DNA of 64,000 bases. It comes from an uncultured delta proteobacterium (GTDB lineage: Bacteria; Desulfobacterota; Desulfomonilia; Desulfomonilales; Desulfomonilaceae). A program made the position numbers and the translations under genes. The notes beneath the pieces were generated by a model that did not search any database, was not told the origin of the DNA, and was given only the letters and a program-made list of their open reading frames with translations. Below are positions 52,630-61,510 of the stretch, one piece after another (the stretch's first letter is position 1; each line of letters begins with the position of its first letter). The DNA lies in the NCBI GenBank assembly GCA_963789265.1, contig CAWBKB010000003.1, positions 160,001 to 224,000 of the forward strand. Reading direction: 5' to 3'.

Positions 52630-53085
52630 TTAATGCCCGCACATAGGAGTTTCTCGCACCAGATAAGTTTGAGGCACCATCACCTGCCGGCAAACAGGCC
52701 TATACACCACATTATAACACGTCACGCACATGGGCTGATAATAGACATAAGGTACTTGCCGCTGGACCACCTGGCAGAACGGTTGTGGACAGCACTTCGT
52801 GCAGGGATCCTGTCCGCAAGGCGAACCGACGGGAATGCCCTTCAACATGAAGTTTTGAATCCTGTAGCCGATTCTCTTAACCGGGATCGCACGCGTACAA
52901 GGCTGAACTTCTGCGACCATTTCAGTCCTTACACAGGGAACCATTCTTGTTACAAACGTGCCACAGGATCCGCATTGCGCAGGCCCGGGGTAGCAGTTCA
53001 TGCATTCACCGGAGACAACGGACGCTGCGAGGAGTAACAAAGCCCCTACAACCGAAACCATAGCCCTTTCCATGATCGACCTCAC
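52630..53085 (-). CDS. secreted Cys/Val/Pro-rich protein (YTV-like composition)
   Basis: Signal peptide; 15 Cys; VTRMVPCVR, RQVPYVYY, VVYRPVCRQVMVP. Confidence 0.8.
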   Translation of the reverse strand: MRSIMERAMVSVVGALLLLAASVVSGECMNCYPGPAQCGSCGTFVTRMVPCVRTEMVAEVQPCTRAIPVKRIGYRIQNFMLKGIPVGSPCGQDPCTKCCPQPFCQVVQRQVPYVYYQPMCVTCYNVVYRPVCRQVMVPQTYLVRETPMCGH

Positions 53086-53405: not shown

Positions 53406-53612
53406 CTATTTTTCGCGCGACTCCAGCATCTGTTTGATGCCGTGCACCAAGAAATAGGCGAACCCGAGAAAAACCAGCCCCCTGAAAATGGTCACGGAGT
53501 CTTCAATGGATCCGGAGCGAATCGCGGGGTAAAGAACATATCCCATGACAAACATTCCAATGAGACAGACAGCTACTTTCAGAGAGGGATTTAAGAACTT
53601 CCTTCCTGCCAT
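53406..53612 (-). CDS. small 2-TM membrane protein
   Basis: MAGRKFLNP.., two hydrophobic helices, GAGGA RBS. Confidence 0.7.
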   Translation of the reverse strand: MAGRKFLNPSLKVAVCLIGMFVMGYVLYPAIRSGSIEDSVTIFRGLVFLGFAYFLVHGIKQMLESREK

Positions 53613-53964
53613 TATAATCCTCGGAACAGGAGAGACCGGTTCGAACCGGCACGGGCTCCTGTCAATATAGTCGGTCGCTTGAAAGCGGAGCGATCTCATT
53701 CCATTCATTCCGCTCGGGATTCCGCGCTATATTAACGCAATGGTAGAGGCCGTCAAGTACAGCGGTCTGGAGGCGGGACAGTGAATTTCCTCCGGACGGA
53801 AATTGAACCTTGCTTGGCATCAGTACAAATGGAATACTACCCAATTCCTATTACCAATGCGGAATTTGTTGATTTCACGCTGGAATATTGTTATAGTACG
53901 GCTGGCATAAACTTGACAGATCATCGCTGATGCAAACGCGCATGTCACGAGAAGGAACAAGCAG

Positions 53965-54291
53965 TTGAAGTCCACCGGCTTCCGAGGTACCATAACAAAT
54001 ACGAGCCTGCCGGATATCATTCAACTTATCTGCATAGGTCGCAATAGCTGCCGTATGCACGTGCGCAGTGGAACAAATAACGGTCTGATATATTTCCGAA
54101 GGGGCGAGATCGTCCACGCCCAAACCAACAGAACGGAAGGCGAGGAAGCATTTTACACAATTCTCTCTTGGGAACTAGGGGTATTCGAGTGTGATAATGA
54201 ATCGGCCAAGACCGAAACGATTCAAGAGAGTTGGGATTTTTTGCTGATGGAGAGTGTGCGGCGACTCGACGCCGAGCGCGGCCTCTCTTAG
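53965..54291 (+). CDS. stand-alone DUF4388 (PATAN-like) domain protein
   Basis: GFRG.I...SLPDIIQL, GLIYFRRGEIVHA, GEEAFYTILSW..G.F, LLMESVRRLD. Confidence 0.9.
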   Translation: MKSTGFRGTITNTSLPDIIQLICIGRNSCRMHVRSGTNNGLIYFRRGEIVHAQTNRTEGEEAFYTILSWELGVFECDNESAKTETIQESWDFLLMESVRRLDAERGLS

Positions 54292-54348
54292 GCGATTCGA
54301 CCGTATAATCCGAAGAACCGGCCAAGGCAAGTCGGTTGAGTGAAACAA

Positions 54349-54765
54349 ATGGCAGATCTCGTGTTAACGAAGCAATCCCTCGACCGTATAGACTCGATTT
54401 TGGCGACCCTCGTGGCACGCAGCGGTGCCCACACGGTCTTGTTGATAGACAAGGCCGGACAGCTCATCAGCTTCCAGGGTTCGATGGATCAGGAAAAGGT
54501 TGCCTCTTTGGCGGCCTTGACAGCGGCCAATTACGGAGCCACCACGGCGATTGCAAGGCTGTTCGGAGAAGAAGAGTTTACGCTTCTCTTCCACAAGGGA
54601 AAGGAGGAGAACATTCACTTTTCCAATGTGGGGGAAGAGTACCTTATGATAACGATTTTCAACAACAATACCCACTTGGGCCTCGTACGTCTGGAGGTGC
54701 GCAAAAGTTTGGAACAGATTGAGGCCATGTTTGCTGAGAATCTCCGCCAGTGGTTCAATGCCTAA
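54349..54765 (+). CDS. mglB: Roadblock/LC7 protein MglB
   Basis: LIDKAGQLI, SLAALTAANYGAT..IARL.GEEEF..LFHKG, IF...T.LGLVRL. Confidence 0.9.
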   Translation: MADLVLTKQSLDRIDSILATLVARSGAHTVLLIDKAGQLISFQGSMDQEKVASLAALTAANYGATTAIARLFGEEEFTLLFHKGKEENIHFSNVGEEYLMITIFNNNTHLGLVRLEVRKSLEQIEAMFAENLRQWFNA

Positions 54766-54797
54766 TCTGGACGTGAGCGGTCTTACAGGATAATTTC

Positions 54798-55439
54798 ATG
54801 GCCATAATAAGTTTCCGATCCGACGAAATTCATTGCAAAATCGTCTATTATGGTCCTGGAAGAGGTGGAAAGACGACTAATCTGATAGCGATCCACAGAG
54901 CTTTAGGCCACCAGGTGCGCGGCGAACTGCTCTCCATCGATACCTCGGGAGATCGTACCCTTTTCTTCGATTTCCTTCCTATGGACCTTGGAACTATTGG
55001 GAAGTTTCGCATCAAGATCTCCCTCTATACCGTTCCCGGTCAAGTGCGTTATAACGATACGCGTAAATTGGTTTTAAAGGGTGTTGACGGCATAGTATTC
55101 GTGGCGGATTCATTGGAGGCCCGCAGGAACAACAACATCGAAAGTCTATTGAACCTTGACGACAATCTGAGAGATCAAGGCAAGACCAGTACATCACTTC
55201 CGCTTGTGCTTCAGTTCAATAAACGGGACTTGGCCGGCAGTCGAGTTGCCGTGCTACCCGTGGAGGAAATGGACAAAGATCTCAACCCTGCATCTCGATT
55301 TCCGTCGTTTCCGGCCAGTGCCTTAAAAGGAGACGGCGTGCGCGAAACGTTCAAGAAGATTTGCATGATGACCGTTGTTGATGTGAGTACAAGACTCTTG
55401 AAGGATAAAGGAATGAGCCTGACAGGGTCGGGGCCCTGA
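54798..55439 (+). CDS. mglA: small GTPase MglA
   Basis: KIVYYGPGRGGKTTNL, DRTLFFDFLP, YTVPGQ, GVDGIVFVADS, NKRD, ASA. Confidence 0.95.
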   Translation: MAIISFRSDEIHCKIVYYGPGRGGKTTNLIAIHRALGHQVRGELLSIDTSGDRTLFFDFLPMDLGTIGKFRIKISLYTVPGQVRYNDTRKLVLKGVDGIVFVADSLEARRNNNIESLLNLDDNLRDQGKTSTSLPLVLQFNKRDLAGSRVAVLPVEEMDKDLNPASRFPSFPASALKGDGVRETFKKICMMTVVDVSTRLLKDKGMSLTGSGP

Positions 55440-55463
55440 TCTAAAAATTCCGGAGAGTTCCCT

Positions 55464-56778
55464 GTGAATGGAAAAAAATACAAGACACCTGATGAACTTG
55501 GCGAAGCTGTAGGATTAAAGATTGAGGAACTCTTCGGCACGATAGTCCACGACCTTCCTCCGGAAGAGCCCGAGGATCAATCGATTGTCAAAGAGCGAAC
55601 GGAAAAAGCTCCTACGGCTCCTATTTCGCGGGCCCCCACACCTGACAGGTACTCCCCGGGATGCAAGATCACGTCCGGGTACCGTCGCAGCCGCCGTGCC
55701 TTCCCCCGCCTCTAACGCTCAAAAGAAGGCCGGCAACACCTGCGCGGAGATTCTTGAGCGTATTGAAATTCTCATGCTGAAACTTGAGTGGGAGGTGAAT
55801 CCCGAGTCGGTCAGAGAGATATTTCAAAGATTTATGGAGTTGGAAGGTTTCTTTTCGGCAGACCGATCGGCGCTAAACATATTAGCCATGAACCGTCGAG
55901 TGCTGCCGCGATTCAAAGACCCGGGGGCGGTGCCTCATCGATCCCTTCTGAGATTGCTCCAGGACAGCATCACGGCTTTAAAAGCCATACATTTATCGCA
56001 GGGCCGTCAGCGTCCCTCAGAGAAATTGATAGCCTCCATCACTAATAGTTATAAAGAAATCGTTTCTTCGCCTCCTGTGTCCGGCGCAGCTTCAAAGTCA
56101 ATGGGTGGAACCACGGAGCAAGGCAACAGACAACGCTACGCATCTTTGATCTCGGAATTTGGTGGGTCTATCCGCTCCATCAACGAGGTTAATCACCGGC
56201 TCGGAAGAATTCTTGGGGTTCTGCGCCAGGGGGGAGGCATGTCCGGCGAAGAAATCAGCCGGCGCCTTGGGGCACTCGAACACCTCATTGCCGAACGTGT
56301 GGAACATCTCTCTGCCGTCCACAAAGAACTGGTTCATATCGGCACACCCACGGGCAGCATAGCGGCTGAATCCGGTCACAATCCTCAGGGAGGCGAAGCC
56401 CGGCCCGACGGGCTGCTAATGATCACGTGGGGAGGAGCTTATCTCGCGATCCCGTCTTCTATCGTAGCGGCTCTCTATCCTCTGTCAAAGGCTCAGACAC
56501 AGCAATTGCAACACAAATCCTCCATTGTCATAGGAGGTCGTACCGTCCAACGAATTCCCCTGAAAAAGCCTCAAGGGGCACAGGCTGAGGCAACAACCCT
56601 GTCCGCTTGGCTCACTCATATTTCTTGGGATCGGAACGATTACTTCCTTCTGGCGGACAAGGTGCTCGGCTATCGCAAGACTCCCGAAGGAGTCGACATA
56701 GCAGGCCAAACAAAAATCAAGATCGGTCCTACCGGATACACGCTTATAGACCGAAAGATTTTGCGTCGGACATCATAG
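55464..56778 (+). CDS. hypothetical protein with C-terminal CheW-like domain (apparent frameshift ~55600-55700)
   Basis: N-helix KIEELFG, P/A linker, LKLEWEV helical domain, C-term LLMITWGGAYLAIPSSIV...YFLLADKVLG. Confidence 0.65.
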
Positions 56779-56825
56779 GCCATTAAGGGTTGGTGGATTC
56801 TTCCTCCAAAGGCCGGCTACCTGCG

Positions 56826-58569
56826 ATGATTAAACAAACAATGTTCAAACCGACGACGTTCGGCCGTTACTGCCTCATCGACCAGATTTCCAAGGGCGGC
56901 ATGTCCGACATCTATCTCGCGAAAGCCGTAGGTTTCGGGGGATTTCAGAAACCATTGGTCATCAAGAAACTTCTTCCTCAATACTCTGAAAAGCCACGCC
57001 ATGTGAAAAGGTTCATAAATGAAGCCAATACGTTAGCTCGCCTGAACCACGCCAACATCGTCCAAATCCTGGATATGGGCGTGATTGCAGGTGAATACTA
57101 CATTGCGTTGGAGTATATCGAAGGGCGAAATGTGGCCCACGTTCTCTCCAAATCCGCACGCAGCCAGGCGCGGCCTCCTCTGGAATTTACTTTGCACGTG
57201 ATTGCGGAACTCGCAAAAGGGCTAGGCTATGTTCATAAGAAACAGGGAACGGGCGGCGAGAATTTAATGCTGGTTCACCAGGACGTGAACTCGTTCAATG
57301 TGATGGTTTCTTACGAGGCCGAGGTAAAGATCATCGACTTCGGCATTGCAAGGATCTTTCTCGACAAGGCGAGGCAGGACAAGCTCCCGGTGGCGGGTAA
57401 GCTTTTGTATTTTTCACCTGAGCAACTTCAGAAGAAACCGTTGGACCGCAGGGTCGATATTTACGGAACAGGCGTGCTGTTCTACGAGCTCCTTACCGGC
57501 AAACGGCTCGTGGAACACCGACCGACCATCGAAGAAACCGTTAAAATGATCTTGAAGGTCGATATCAGGGACAAGGTTCGAGGTGATAACGGCATTCCCG
57601 ATGAACTGAAACCGATACTCACCAAGGCCATGGCTTTCGATCCGGGGGCAAGATATTCCTGGATGGAAGAAATGATCGAAGATATCCGATCCGTCTCAAA
57701 GAAACTCTCGCTCGATCTCAATTCAGCCTCTCTATCGGCGTACATGAAAGAACATTTTAGCCAGGAGATACATCTTGACAGGCGCAGAATGCGGAAGCTC
57801 GTATCCGAGGAAGTTCCTCCGGTTGAAAGAACCGGGGGGGGGACCAAGGGGACATCGGCCGGCACCGGGACCGACCTGCTGGAGGCAATCCTGAATCCTG
57901 TTTTAGCGCCGCTGACGGATCACGAAAAAGGATGGGAAGAGCAGACTCAGTTTATCCCGAAGACTATGAAACTTAAGGCTGGAAAGACAATCTTTAGGCA
58001 GGGAGACACGGGATCCGACATTTTTGTAATCAAAAAGGGTACGGTGAGGCTCTTCGTAAAAGTAGGATCGACACGCCGAGACCGTGTCCCTAATCGGGGA
58101 AGGTGACTTCTTCGGAGAAACCGCCCTCCTGGACGGGTACGGCCGGTCGGTTACAGCGCGGGCGGAGGAAAATTGCCAGCTTGTTCCAATAGGCAAGGAA
58201 GCTTTCTTAAGGCTTGCCGGAAGCGATCCCGCACGTACGGTAATTAAACGTCTCGTGGCACGTATCCGAGACTCCAACTCTCTGCTCGAAAGCGCCATGT
58301 TGCAGGACACCCTGTCACGACTGATTTACGCACTGTTGTTCTTCCAGCGAAGAGAACTCGGGCAAAACGGCAAGGCTATAAACCTGAAGGAGTTAACTGA
58401 GTTGTTTCGCCTGGAAAACAGCCGCGAGATGCAGAAGTATTTGGCCAAATTGCAAGCCCTCAATGTTCTTCAGGCCGATGAAGAAGTTGTGCAAGTAAAG
58501 AATCCTCAAAAGCTGGAGAACATCCTGAACATCCTGGTCGGCCGCGGAAAATTCACTTTGAAATTGTGA
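56826..58569 (+). CDS. Ser/Thr kinase fused to cNMP-binding and CRP-like HTH domains (apparent +1 indel ~58078)
   Basis: KGGMSDIY, VIKK, HQDVNSFNV, DFG, YFSPE; IFRQGD..IFVIKKG.V; FFGETALL...RSVTA. Confidence 0.85.
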
Positions 58570-58649: not shown

Positions 58650-59378
58650 ATGCATATTATAGCGATAAACGCGGCCCCGCGCATGGAAGCGGGTAATACT
58701 CAGATGATTCTTAACCCCTTCCTGGTTGGTGCGCGACACGTAGGAGCCAAAGTGGATGTGGCACTTCTGGCCAGAAAGAAAATAAACCCGTGCATGGGAT
58801 GTTTCTCATGCTACGCTCTGACTCCGGGCGTATGCGTCCATAATGACGATATGCAAGGCCTCATTGAGAGAATTCGAGCGGCCGACATGATGATATTGGC
58901 CACTCCCATCTATCTGGATGGGATGACTTCTCTGGCAAAGATCTTTATCGACAGACTGGTAGTCTTTCTGGAGCCGCATTACATCATGGATGAAATGGGT
59001 CTGTTACACCCGCTGAGGTGGAATTTTCCCCGGAAAATGTTCCTGGTTTCTGTCTGCGGCTATTCGGGCCTGCACAACTTTGATCCCCTGGTTCTGCACA
59101 TGGAACGACTCGCCAGAAACTTTCACACCGAATTTTGCGGTGCCCTCCTACGACCGGCCGTATTTTCGGTCCTGCTCACCAAAAAGTATCCGGAGCGGGT
59201 TCGCGGGGTGCTCGATGCCGTCAGGATGGCCGGGGAAGAATTGGTGAGGTTCGGAAACGCCACAGCTCCTACCCTAAAGGCCGTAGCTGAGGACATTTGC
59301 ACTCCGGAAGAATTGATGGCGACCGCCAACTCTTATTGGGATCGTGAACTCGGAGGGCCTCCTGACGAACCTGCATAA
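58650..59378 (+). CDS. flavodoxin family / iron-sulfur flavoprotein
   Basis: PRMEAGNT, CMGCFSC..TPGVC..NDDM, ATPIY, KIFIDR. Confidence 0.9.
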   Translation: MHIIAINAAPRMEAGNTQMILNPFLVGARHVGAKVDVALLARKKINPCMGCFSCYALTPGVCVHNDDMQGLIERIRAADMMILATPIYLDGMTSLAKIFIDRLVVFLEPHYIMDEMGLLHPLRWNFPRKMFLVSVCGYSGLHNFDPLVLHMERLARNFHTEFCGALLRPAVFSVLLTKKYPERVRGVLDAVRMAGEELVRFGNATAPTLKAVAEDICTPEELMATANSYWDRELGGPPDEPA

Positions 59379-61510
59379 GACGCATCGGCACCTGTCCGAG
59401 GGAGGAGACGTCTGTGGTGGGGTCAGGTCGCGCAGTACCAATTCGGTTTTCTCAACTATTGTTCGCTTACATTTTATCACTTTATTCCTCCTTGCGATCC
59501 CGGTTCAGTGCCTTGGCGGCGGAGTCTTTCATGTTTTCCCGCCGACTTTGAAAGATGGAACCGTTGCCGTGGCGCGACTTTCCGTCCTTCTTTCGAGGAC
59601 ACTCATTACGGTTTCAGAATCCTCCGTCGAATATAGGATCGACCAGACTTTTTTCAACGATAATGACTATCCTTTGGACGGGCTGTTCATTCTGCCCATT
59701 GGATGCGGCGAGCCCTCAATCAAGGCCGATGTACACGTAGATGGTTCCCCCTGCCCTTTTACTCTCTCCACCGCCAAACATTTCTTCCCCACATTGCGCA
59801 ACCTGACCGTGTCTATGAAGGACCCATCCCTTCTCGGGCTTTCCGGAGGGTCAGTGATGGTAATTCAGCCGATCCACATAGGTGTGCGTCAACAGAAGTC
59901 ATTCCGGATAATGTTCAAGAAACCTTTGACCTTGAAAAACGAAGAACTGGAAATTCTGTTGCCTCTCGTCGGTGAGCGGTATTCCCTTGGGCCCGTCGGC
60001 GAACTGAATATTCGTGTGCGGCTGAAAATGTCACGATCTGTGAGAGCAGTATTTTCACCATCCCATCACCTTACAATTGTGAGGGAAGCCCCTCACAGAT
60101 GCATGGTTATCGCAAAAGCAAAAGAAAAGAAGGTTCGGCATGATTTCCGATTGCTCATCACATTCTCCGGTGAAGATCTGGATTTGAGGGTGTTCAAAAA
60201 CCGACCCGCAGGAAGGAAGGGGACGTTCATGGCACTTGTTTCGCCACCAGTTGCCTGCTCCAAGGGAACGGGGCCTGACAAAGACGTTGTCTTCCTGTTA
60301 GATGCTTCCGGCAGCATGAGAAAGCCGGATTTCGAACTTGCCAAGAAAGCAGTTCTTTTCGGCCTGGAAAAACTTCGCTCGACGGACAGGTTCAACGTGT
60401 TAACTGTCGGCACCCGCACCGGAAGGCTGACGCACAGTCTTGTCTCTGCAAGCTCGGAAAATCTCATGAAGGCCGCTCAATTTGTGAATTCAACCCGGGG
60501 GGGCGGCGGCACAGACATGTACAACGGTCTGATGAACGCCTTGGAGCAGTTCACTTCTCGCAAGCGGGCCGGCATCGTGATTTTCGTCGGCGATGGCTGT
60601 GCCACGGTTGGGGTAACGAATCGCGAAGTGATCGATGAGGATGTCCGTCGCAACAACAAAACACGAGCGCGGATTTTCGTCCTCACTATGGGAGACGCGG
60701 ATGTGGCCATGCTCGACAAGGTGGCAATGTCGAACCGAGGCGGCTCCTTTCATCTCACGGACAACGATGATTTTCCTTCCGCCATGAATCACTTTTTTGC
60801 CCGGATTTCTCCACCTCAGGCTGCCGATCTTTCCCTGGTATTCCAAAATATTTCTGCCGAAGATGTTGAGCCGAAGGACATCCCGGACCTGTTTGGGCAA
60901 GAGAGTATCGCAGTGTTTGGGCGTTACGACCGGGCGAGCGATACCGAGGCAAAAGTTGTACTCAAGGCCAGAGTCCAAGGCCGTGTGAACACAGTCGTGC
61001 AGAATCTTAGATTCTCCGCGGTTGATGAGGGCCACTCTTATATACCGCGCTTGTGGGCCATGCGACACGTTAGCGCGACTGCTCGAAAAGGAATCTCTCA
61101 AAGGATTCGACTCAGAACGGCTACATCAGATTACGGCCCTGGCCGGGGTATATGGATTCCGACTGCCGAAAATTTCAACAATGCCCACTGAACATGGTGC
61201 TACGACCGACAAAGACACAGGCGGGCTGCTGTGGAGCTATAAGATGTCCCCGGTGGCCGTGGACGTGGAATCAGAACAATTCCGAAGTGTTGAAGGCAGG
61301 GTATTTCGATCGGACAACGGGCTATGGGTAGACACGGAGTATCGCCCTTCAATGGCGGCTCGCACGGTGAGATTTCTGAGTAAAGAATATTTTTCCCTTT
61401 GCAGGGACGATCTGTCCGTAGGTCATTACTTGGCCCTCGGTTCCAACTTAATCTTCATGTCGGATAAGGGCCCCATAAGAATAGTCTCTGATATCAATGC
61501 ATCCCGATAG
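59344..61510 (+). CDS. exported VIT + vWA domain protein (start uncertain; apparent +1 indel ~61070)
   Basis: IDQTFFN...LDGLFILP (VIT); DVVFLLDASGSM MIDAS, DRFNV, GGTD, IPDLF, RLWA; C-term GLWVDT. Confidence 0.82.

Follow-up and report, generated by a model that had tools for sequence, protein, structure and literature searches.

The mgl locus and its conservation

The DNA analysed here, called the window below, is a stretch of 64,000 nucleotides from contig CAWBKB010000003.1 of an uncultured delta proteobacterium (genome G000) of the Desulfomonilaceae, hereafter the family. It contains five closely spaced genes on the + strand at 53965..58569, as the original prediction from the sequence had it, with intergenic gaps of 57, 32, 24 and 11 bp in order. 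They encode a stand-alone DUF4388 (PATAN) protein, the Roadblock protein MglB, the GTPase MglA, a hypothetical protein that we call the scaffold, and a fusion of a Ser/Thr kinase, a cyclic-nucleotide (cNMP)-binding domain and a helix-turn-helix (HTH). The main finding is that one clade of MglA proteins is accompanied by MglB that has lost its acidic C-terminal helix and by a scaffold that has gained such a helix, the scaffold itself being a relative of the chemotaxis kinase CheA that lacks the kinase. All features are collected in Table 1.

The MglA/MglB switch was originally proposed to form a module with its co-encoded partners, and the synteny of the kinase and CheW-like genes with mglAB was checked in relatives. 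The order DUF4388-mglB-mglA-hypothetical-kinase::cNMP::HTH is kept in 20/20 orthologous loci fetched (19 Desulfomonilaceae genomes) and again in the 3/3 full-length kinase loci of a separate scan. The module is thus conserved, and RomR was not found in the 11 family genomes searched for it. An orthologue of the window mglA is present in 21 of the 25 family genomes, G000 included. Across genera MglA and MglB are 80-97% identical, while identity falls to about 40% for the scaffold and about 50% for the kinase.

As assembled, the hypothetical and kinase genes of the window have one frameshift apiece that breaks the reading frame. Run X1 contigs that match the window at 99+%, one per break site (depth 2.8 and 3.7), have one base fewer at 55648 and at 58078, and run X3 is also without the base at 58078. 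Each gene is one open reading frame (ORF) in 16 of the 20 relatives; the other relatives break at scattered places, and there are further scattered frameshifts elsewhere in G000. Because of the one-base-shorter contigs and the intact ORFs in relatives, both frameshifts are most likely assembly errors, and the same comparison speaks against real pseudogenes as a reading of the broken ORFs. Since the window copies are frameshifted, the scaffold and kinase were analysed on intact orthologues.

The gap between DUF4388 and mglB is short in the window alone (67-416 bp in 14 relatives). The DUF4388 gene is found in all 20 orthologous loci, truncated by the contig start in one, and a putative promoter lies upstream of it in the window. 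The same hexamer pair occurs 5' of DUF4388 in 7/15 loci (260 bases compared), and neither a CRP-like nor a sigma-54-like site was found in the 15 upstream regions.

Scaffold anatomy and the displaced helix

MglA of the window has intact GPGRGGKTT (G1), DRTLFFDF, TVPGQ and NKRD motifs, as first noted. With its G1, an intrinsic Arg in G2, TVPGQ in G3, NKRD in G4 and a coupled mglB gene it belongs to group 1 as defined in PMC4316618. MglB matches MglB in the PDB with an expectation value (E) of 2e-30 and is 80-97% identical among 13 family orthologues. Its tail ends 28 residues past the core motif and has no helix matching that of the 40 other loci, in which the tail is 45-51 residues long and carries the motif. 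The acidic C-terminal helix that marks a Myxococcus-type MglB with dual GTPase-activating (GAP) and guanine nucleotide exchange (GEF) function is thus absent from the window protein.

In Myxococcus xanthus, MglB residues 147-157 bind an MglA pocket made of alpha5, beta2 and the beta2-beta3 loop, and the helix holds MglB on MglA-GDP and favours nucleotide exchange (PMC6785124). The acidic helix of RomR can stand in for it in vitro, and grafting it restores turnover (PMC6785124). Window MglA resembles M. xanthus MglA (6IZW) in its group-1 motifs, its coupled Roadblock MglB and this allosteric pocket, of which L64, I67 and K186 (Myxococcus K181) are kept; Myxococcus K185 is replaced by M190. In contrast to M. 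xanthus, the partners are encoded together, a search of 11 family genomes gave no RomR, and the matching helix is on a separate CheA-like protein.

That protein was originally described as a hypothetical of about 440 amino acids (aa) with a CheW-like tail, and taken for an adaptor. The tail stands, on the evidence of fold, profiles and distant relatives, but the protein as a whole is a kinase-dead CheA-like scaffold rather than an adaptor. Pfam and NCBIfam give nothing for the family's scaffold and the assignment therefore rests on fold and profile methods. The AlphaFold2 model of the intact orthologue P0008 (54 alignment rows; mean predicted local distance difference test (pLDDT) 71.5) begins with a helix (residues 8-27) and a disordered linker (29-102); the five-helix bundle that follows spans 103-216, the hairpin 229-303 and the beta domain 325-446.

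The top three structural matches of the bundle are all CheA P1 domains (Z 13.1-13.3, root-mean-square deviation 2.7-3.4, 114-118 residues aligned). Against 1i5n the values are Z 13.3, deviation 2.7 and 114 aligned, although a designed bundle ties at 13.1 and values near 13 can be generic for helical bundles. Kinship with P1 is supported by sequence too, because HHalign gives a probability of 83.6 for the bundle against CheA P1 and the scaffold profile also matched two true CheAs. The column of the CheA phospho-accepting His holds His in 2% of 302 scaffold domains. The hairpin has no profile support as P3 (probability 0.9), and its structural matches are generic. Pfam finds a P4 HATPase in 0/17 scaffold members, and in the P0008 model only about 22 residues separate hairpin and tail. 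The beta domain has the CheW-like fold of two subdomains, and its Foldseek ranks 1-9 are all CheW or CheA-P5 chains. With the wide alignment its HHalign values are 96.7 for P5 and 94.6 for CheW, with the family alignment 31 and 0.9; PF01584 is matched in 7/65 distant scaffold relatives and a Pfam match to the CheW-like tail is found in 0/17 family members.

The hypothetical protein is therefore a kinase-less pseudo-CheA made of a helix, a disordered linker, a His-less P1/Hpt domain, a hairpin and a P5/CheW-like tail. It shares with CheA the P1/Hpt fold, the helical hairpin and the P5 fold, in the same order, and differs in an additional, predicted MglA-binding helix and in having no phospho-His, P2 or P4 ATPase, so that it is unable to autophosphorylate.

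The scaffold profile matched 318 clusters at 50% identity (E <= 0.001), and a wide scaffold alignment was used to search 201 genomes of the phylum. We fetched 46 extra-family loci from the listed matches (95 weaker ones were unlisted); they were picked by the scaffold profile alone, mainly for coverage of the helical domain. Scaffold and mglA share a locus in 41 of the 46 (23 families), and in 37 the scaffold gene immediately follows mglA. The remaining five comprise two true CheAs, one locus at a contig end and two whose fetched stretch has no mglA. Among the labels that members bear are FimV and hypothetical, and we found no description of the scaffold or the displaced helix in open-access publications. 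One long repetitive match, P0098, was dismissed as a low-complexity artefact. At L126, L132, L137 and L141 and in protein P0244 the scaffold is acidic and very long, with two P1-like domains and numerous copies of the helix; one such member, from Candidatus Electrothrix aarhusensis, is labelled FimV in UniRef.

The same genomes were searched for MglA (150 matches listed, 26 more unlisted), and all 43 further short forms and 17 of the long forms were fetched. None of the 35 phylum loci with an acidic-helix MglB has a scaffold. Of 39 loci with a helix-less MglB, 38 have one and the exception is at a contig end; there are three scaffolds among the 27 loci without detectable mglB. A third mgl paralogue within the family likewise combines a helix-bearing MglB with absence of the scaffold (5/5 loci), so that a scaffold is found in 0/40 helix-bearing loci. 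These were fetched with flanks of about 3.5 kb, compared with 8 kb elsewhere, and the gene after mglA was still covered. A motif [ILVAMF][DE]x[LIFY]F lies ahead of the P1-like domain in 69/77 scaffolds (2.6 expected from shuffles). Several scaffolds have multiple copies of the helix in long acidic linkers: three in most paralogous scaffolds and at least six in L132, L137 and L141. Taken together, the data show complementary loss of the helix from MglB and gain by the scaffold in one MglA clade.

Other mgl arrangements were seen alongside. The third paralogue (L060-L064), found in some family genomes and forming a long branch in the MglA tree, also has flanking DUF4388 genes and a second small Roadblock gene. 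Copies of mglA without mglB (L053-L057) are near window mglA in the tree, and three of the five are beside che and DUF4388-bearing genes. Short MglAs without mglB at L165, L178, L201 and L202 are followed by a gene of about 390-410 aa that, from its sequence, has a DUF4388-like start; a PilZ-like gene is close by. Long MglAs of 310-520 aa, extended at the C-terminus and with no mglB next to them (L065-L067, L207-L223), are common in the phylum.

In order to place the helix, the complex of window MglA, two MglB, GTP and scaffold residues 1-36 was predicted. It scored 0.76 and the best of three controls 0.00; the 0.76 mark is reached by 116/157 solved and 2/215 mismatched pairs, counts that hold roughly for this job. 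Runs agree in at least 81% of contacts, with partner pLDDT of at least 65, and confident contacts are made solely with MglA 35-40, 64-72 and 182-201 (alpha5 and the beta2-beta3 loop), which is the pocket described for 6IZW (PMC6785124). The model sets MglA 190 against helix residue 17, and these positions covary. With Lys at MglA 190, all 23/23 pairs have an acidic helix residue 17 (Asp or Glu); with any other residue at 190, helix residue 17 is Gly in 18/21, including one Met/Gly pair in another family. The scaffold helix is thus predicted to dock in the MglA allosteric pocket, and binding MglA through its N-terminal helix is the best-supported job for the scaffold.

In that pocket the helix might only anchor or sequester MglA, as landmark or competitor, with no effect on exchange. 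The pocket evidence suits this equally, the multiple helix copies in acidic linkers suit a multivalent hub, and RomRX, whose role as a GEF is disputed, has been recast as an effector and partitioning factor (PMC13408092). We nevertheless think anchoring unlikely to be the whole role, as the MglB helix is lost where the scaffold helix is gained, which suggests that the same function was replaced, and the RomR graft restored turnover (PMC6785124).

RomR, chemoreceptors and pili

A RomR-like C-terminal helix was found in 33/34 genomes with helix-bearing MglB, in 27 of them by DNA pattern and in six of the other seven by profile; the starting motif agrees with the residues named in PMC12719032. 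It was found in none of the 11 family genomes searched, and the RomR profile gave nothing in G000. The scaffold resembles RomR in combining an acidic amphipathic helix, a Pro-rich disordered linker and a signalling-type domain. It differs in its reversed domain order and CheA folds, and has neither the N-terminal receiver domain of RomR nor its C-terminal helix with the conserved Trp (PMC12719032). We had considered the LEWE motif of the scaffold as the C-terminal motif of RomR, and dropped this since LEWE sits at the end of helix A in the Hpt fold. RomR-like proteins without the conserved Trp (L237, L240-L242) were seen in a family that also carries the scaffold.

The original prediction had the CheW-like protein docking on chemoreceptor arrays. 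A chemoreceptor is encoded in 24/25 family genomes and in 17/22 tail-bearing phylum genomes. The other five of the 22, which are 95-100% complete, have no match to a methyl-accepting chemotaxis protein, and the tail itself is undetected in 19/41 phylum scaffolds and 17/17 paralogous scaffolds. This weakens the proposal. Because tail-bearing genomes without a chemoreceptor match exist, array docking by the tail is, to judge from the genome sequences, not obligatory.

A fuller form of that proposal is that the tail inserts into arrays in the way of ParP and so lets the single Chp-like chemosensory system place or gate MglA. The P5/CheW fold and the near-universal chemoreceptor of the family are consistent with it. 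The single chemoreceptor, CheW and large CheA genes of G000 are clustered with those for a DUF4388-containing regulator and a ParA/MinD-like protein. The three near-complete family genomes that have no MglA match, G007, G012 and G016, are also without the family-typical large receptor and large CheA, although these three are kin of one another and may not be independent cases. Moreover, Vibrio ParP has the same helix-linker-CheW layout, with an N-terminal NTPase-binding element, a Pro-rich linker and a CheW-like C-terminal domain (PMC5706961). In the scaffold, however, a Ras-like GTPase takes the place of ParC as partner, an Hpt fold is added, and genomes without a chemoreceptor match retain the tail. 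Given these genomes, the many scaffolds in which the tail is undetected and its strong divergence in the family (Pfam 0/17), we regard array-based placement of MglA as improbable. The chemosensory cluster itself, the only one in the genome (L070:7892-19867; G000:C7), encodes a REC-DUF4388-REC-CheB fusion and a second REC-CheB in addition to the ParA/MinD-like gene; no CheR was found among its scanned ORFs.

As for an output, pilM-Q genes are within about 8 kb in 13/46 extra-family loci, from four families. pilM is directly after the scaffold in L107, L108, L109, L114 and L127, and a gene for a TPR-PilB-type ATPase follows the scaffold in L134. In Synechocystis, PATAN domains bind PilB1 and PilC (bioRxiv 2021.06.11.447907). 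These observations point to the type IV pilus motor. The module might instead control a non-pilus process, for example division, filament polarity or secretion. In favour of this, pil genes are not adjacent to the locus in the Desulfomonilaceae, they are nearby in just 13 of the 46 other loci, and pilM is kept in G007 and G012, which have no MglA match and so rule out strict co-loss of MglA with pili. Set against the loci with pilM or the ATPase gene directly after the scaffold and the cyanobacterial data, a non-pilus role appears rather improbable.

Table 1. Features of the window at and around the mgl locus
Feature	Coordinates	Strand	Evidence and remarks
Candidate sigma-70-like promoter	53869..53897	+	TTGATT-17 nt-TATAGT, TG before -10 box; consensus match
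Stand-alone DUF4388/PATAN protein, 108 aa	53965..54291	+	PF14332, E 1.6e-23
MglB, 138 aa; Roadblock core without acidic C-terminal helix	54349..54765	+	PF03259; alternative GTG start 54340
Group-1 MglA GTPase, 213 aa	54798..55439	+	PDB MglA match, E 7.7e-53
Pseudo-CheA scaffold, about 440 aa	55464..56778	+	Model of orthologue P0008, fold searches; one extra base near 55648
N-terminal amphipathic helix, residues 8-24	55485..55535	+	Predicted to bind the MglA pocket for the MglB C-terminal helix
P1/Hpt-fold domain without phospho-accepting His	55735..56076	+	Structural matches, HHalign; conserved LxLEWE and HP motifs
Helical hairpin at CheA P3 position, likely dimerisation	56113..56337	+	Generic hairpin matches
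CheW/P5-like beta domain	56401..56775	+	Foldseek, HHalign; nearer CheA P5 than CheW
Non-RD Hanks-type Ser/Thr kinase, CRP-like cNMP domain and winged helix, about 595 aa	56790..58569	+	One extra base at 58078
Flavodoxin-fold (FMN_red) protein	58650..59378	+	PF03358; usually after the kinase gene; in 17/20 orthologous loci
VIT-VWA protein	59344..61510	+	Pfam VWA_3; frameshifted near 61070 in assembly; in 16/20 orthologous loci

The kinase fusion and a proposed split-regulator model

The last gene of the run was originally predicted to be a cNMP-sensing kinase and a co-encoded input to the switch. Both sensor and kinase motifs are intact. Lys59, Glu78, H-x-D-x-N-x-x-N and DFG are invariant in 16/16 orthologues, and the fold is PknB-like. 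The residue before the catalytic Asp is Gln in 15/16, not the Arg of the RD class. The cNMP-pocket Gly, Glu and Arg are kept in 16, 15 and 14 of the 16, and an intact orthologue matches PF00027 (E 1e-20). The C-terminal 200 aa match Thermus CRP (4ev0) over cNMP domain and HTH (E 9e-20). Arg-Glu-x3-Arg residues have a recognised role in the recognition helix of CRP; in an alignment with Thermus CRP the first two of these positions are variable here, and the third holds Lys or Arg. The module is thus like CRP/FNR in its cNMP domain, C-helix and winged HTH, and unlike them in being fused behind a kinase and in not keeping the Arg-Glu pair. Among the matches listed, the full-length fusion is found in family-type loci alone (3/80), and none of the other 77 loci has kinase and cNMP domain in one ORF. 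M. xanthus MasK is likewise a protein kinase whose gene adjoins mglBA and which has a link to MglA and pili (PMC3546991). It is membrane-associated and divergently transcribed, whereas the window kinase is in the same gene run and fused to a CRP-like module.

This distribution raises the possibility that the working unit is mglB-mglA-scaffold, together with PATAN, and that the kinase::CRP-like gene and the next two genes are co-transcribed additions of the lineage that act elsewhere, for example in transcription or on the FHA-cyclase. The restriction of the fusion to family-type loci, the use of the position after the scaffold by other families for a TPR-pseudokinase (four loci), a TPR-PilB ATPase or pilM, and the match to Thermus CRP all agree with this. 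On the other hand, the kinase is directly after the scaffold in 20/20 family loci with tight gaps (-4 to 25 bp in 14/15 measured), in two other families the gene after the scaffold encodes a kinase fold, and in L118 and L138 mglB is flanked by cNMP-DUF4388 fusions. The HTH is also without the Arg-Glu pair of CRP, and the upstream regions gave no CRP-like site. We consider such a division quite possible, if short of an even chance, and it is compatible with the explanation that we prefer. The TPR-pseudokinases (L111-L113, L116, in the two other families) have degenerate catalytic loops, and the fusions are cNMP-DUF4388 and ParA-cNMP-DUF4388 proteins (L118:5661-6797, L138:10350-12347).

DUF4388 next to group-1 mglBA is already in print (PMC4316618), and the neighbourhood table of that paper has only MglB, MglA and PATAN for five such genomes. 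The window protein is like PATAN/PatA-type regulators in this respect, and differs from them in being stand-alone, without a receiver domain. Further out, the VIT-VWA gene of the window has a MIDAS-like motif and a signal-like start. Two - strand ORFs without a Pfam match lie upstream: 52630-53085, a Cys-rich protein of 151 aa with a signal-peptide-like start, found upstream in many family loci, and 53406-53708, a small divergent membrane-type ORF with a conserved part of about 70 aa, upstream in 17/20 family loci.

A second mgl locus in the family (L051:4228-13235; G000:C3, about 120-129 kb) encodes a large multi-DUF4388 protein, a 278-aa N-terminally extended MglB, MglA and a scaffold that carries as many as three copies of the helix but lacks the CheW tail; PilZ and FHA-GAF-cyclase genes come next. 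This arrangement is kept in 17/17 fetched family loci, the last two genes included. The cyclase has a Lys and an Asp that we take to be adenylyl-specific residues, and there are at least 12 other cyclase-like regions in G000. A loop between the two mgl loci through kinase and cyclase is plausible and should be treated only as a lead.

The explanation we prefer for the whole is a split-regulator form of the MglA/MglB polarity switch, and we hold the chances for and against it to be even. MglA, whose group-1 motifs are intact, would act as the GTPase and MglB as its Roadblock GAP, by analogy with Myxococcus and Thermus. The scaffold helix, on the predicted complex, would supply in the MglA pocket the piece lost from MglB. 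MglB alone would then be a plain GAP, and MglA would be recharged or retained solely where the scaffold sits, which would make the scaffold a spatial cue. The His-less P1 fold and P5-like tail may be surfaces for interaction or self-assembly and not part of a phosphorelay. The likely output would be the type IV pilus motor, for which the PATAN protein would serve as adaptor, by analogy with the neighbourhoods of other families and the cyanobacterial PATAN data. The Desulfomonilaceae would have added the cNMP-binding kinase as an input. In the weakest step, for which this is the most probable route, cAMP on the CRP-like module may switch the non-RD kinase, which may phosphorylate the scaffold or an FHA-bearing partner.

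A number of observations weigh against this explanation. In a quick tree of 125 MglA rows (27 near-duplicate or cut rows left out), 55/55 scaffold-linked MglAs are on one side of one long branch (SH-aLRT 100), and the mutual exclusion therefore counts as a single evolutionary event. For two scaffold-type genes the stretch that was fetched has no mglA, and three scaffold loci have no detectable mglB. In the covariation count 17 of the 21 non-Lys rows are from one family, and the complex was given the same paired alignments, so that the two results are not independent. A similar complex is solved (6IZW) and the prediction may recall it. Compared with the K181-F157 and K185-D154 contacts published for 6IZW, the predicted register looks shifted by about one turn. 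The Myxococcus helix is tethered to MglB, unlike the separate scaffold helix. A RomR-like helix, mostly diverged or weak, is found in 11/42 extra-family scaffold genomes, which rules out strict exclusion between RomR and scaffold. To these are added the family-restricted kinase fusion and the two points on pili made above, that pil genes are not adjacent in the family and that pilM persists without MglA.

In its widest form, the split-regulator explanation would have an MglA clade across the Desulfobacterota, with scaffold relatives also in cable bacteria, use a two-part exchange factor: a Roadblock core plus a helix supplied in trans by a kinase-dead CheA that usually replaces RomR. In the Desulfomonilaceae, two paralogous switches may be cross-wired by the cAMP-binding kinase and a phosphothreonine-reading FHA-GAF-adenylyl cyclase as a feedback loop. 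We put this forward tentatively, and it is doubtful that all of it will hold.

In Myxococcus it is still an unsolved problem how the GAP activity of MglB is kept spatially separate from exchange activity (PMC6785124, PMC13408092). The clade described here appears to split the two onto separate proteins and would offer a natural system in which each can be removed or added. The displaced helix also provides a large unannotated protein family (318 clusters) with a function that can be tested and, if true, would mean that CheA folds have been reused as a GTPase scaffold. The member from Candidatus Electrothrix may bear on how cable bacteria steer, and in the Desulfomonilaceae the cNMP-binding kinase would add second-messenger control to a bacterial Ras-like switch.

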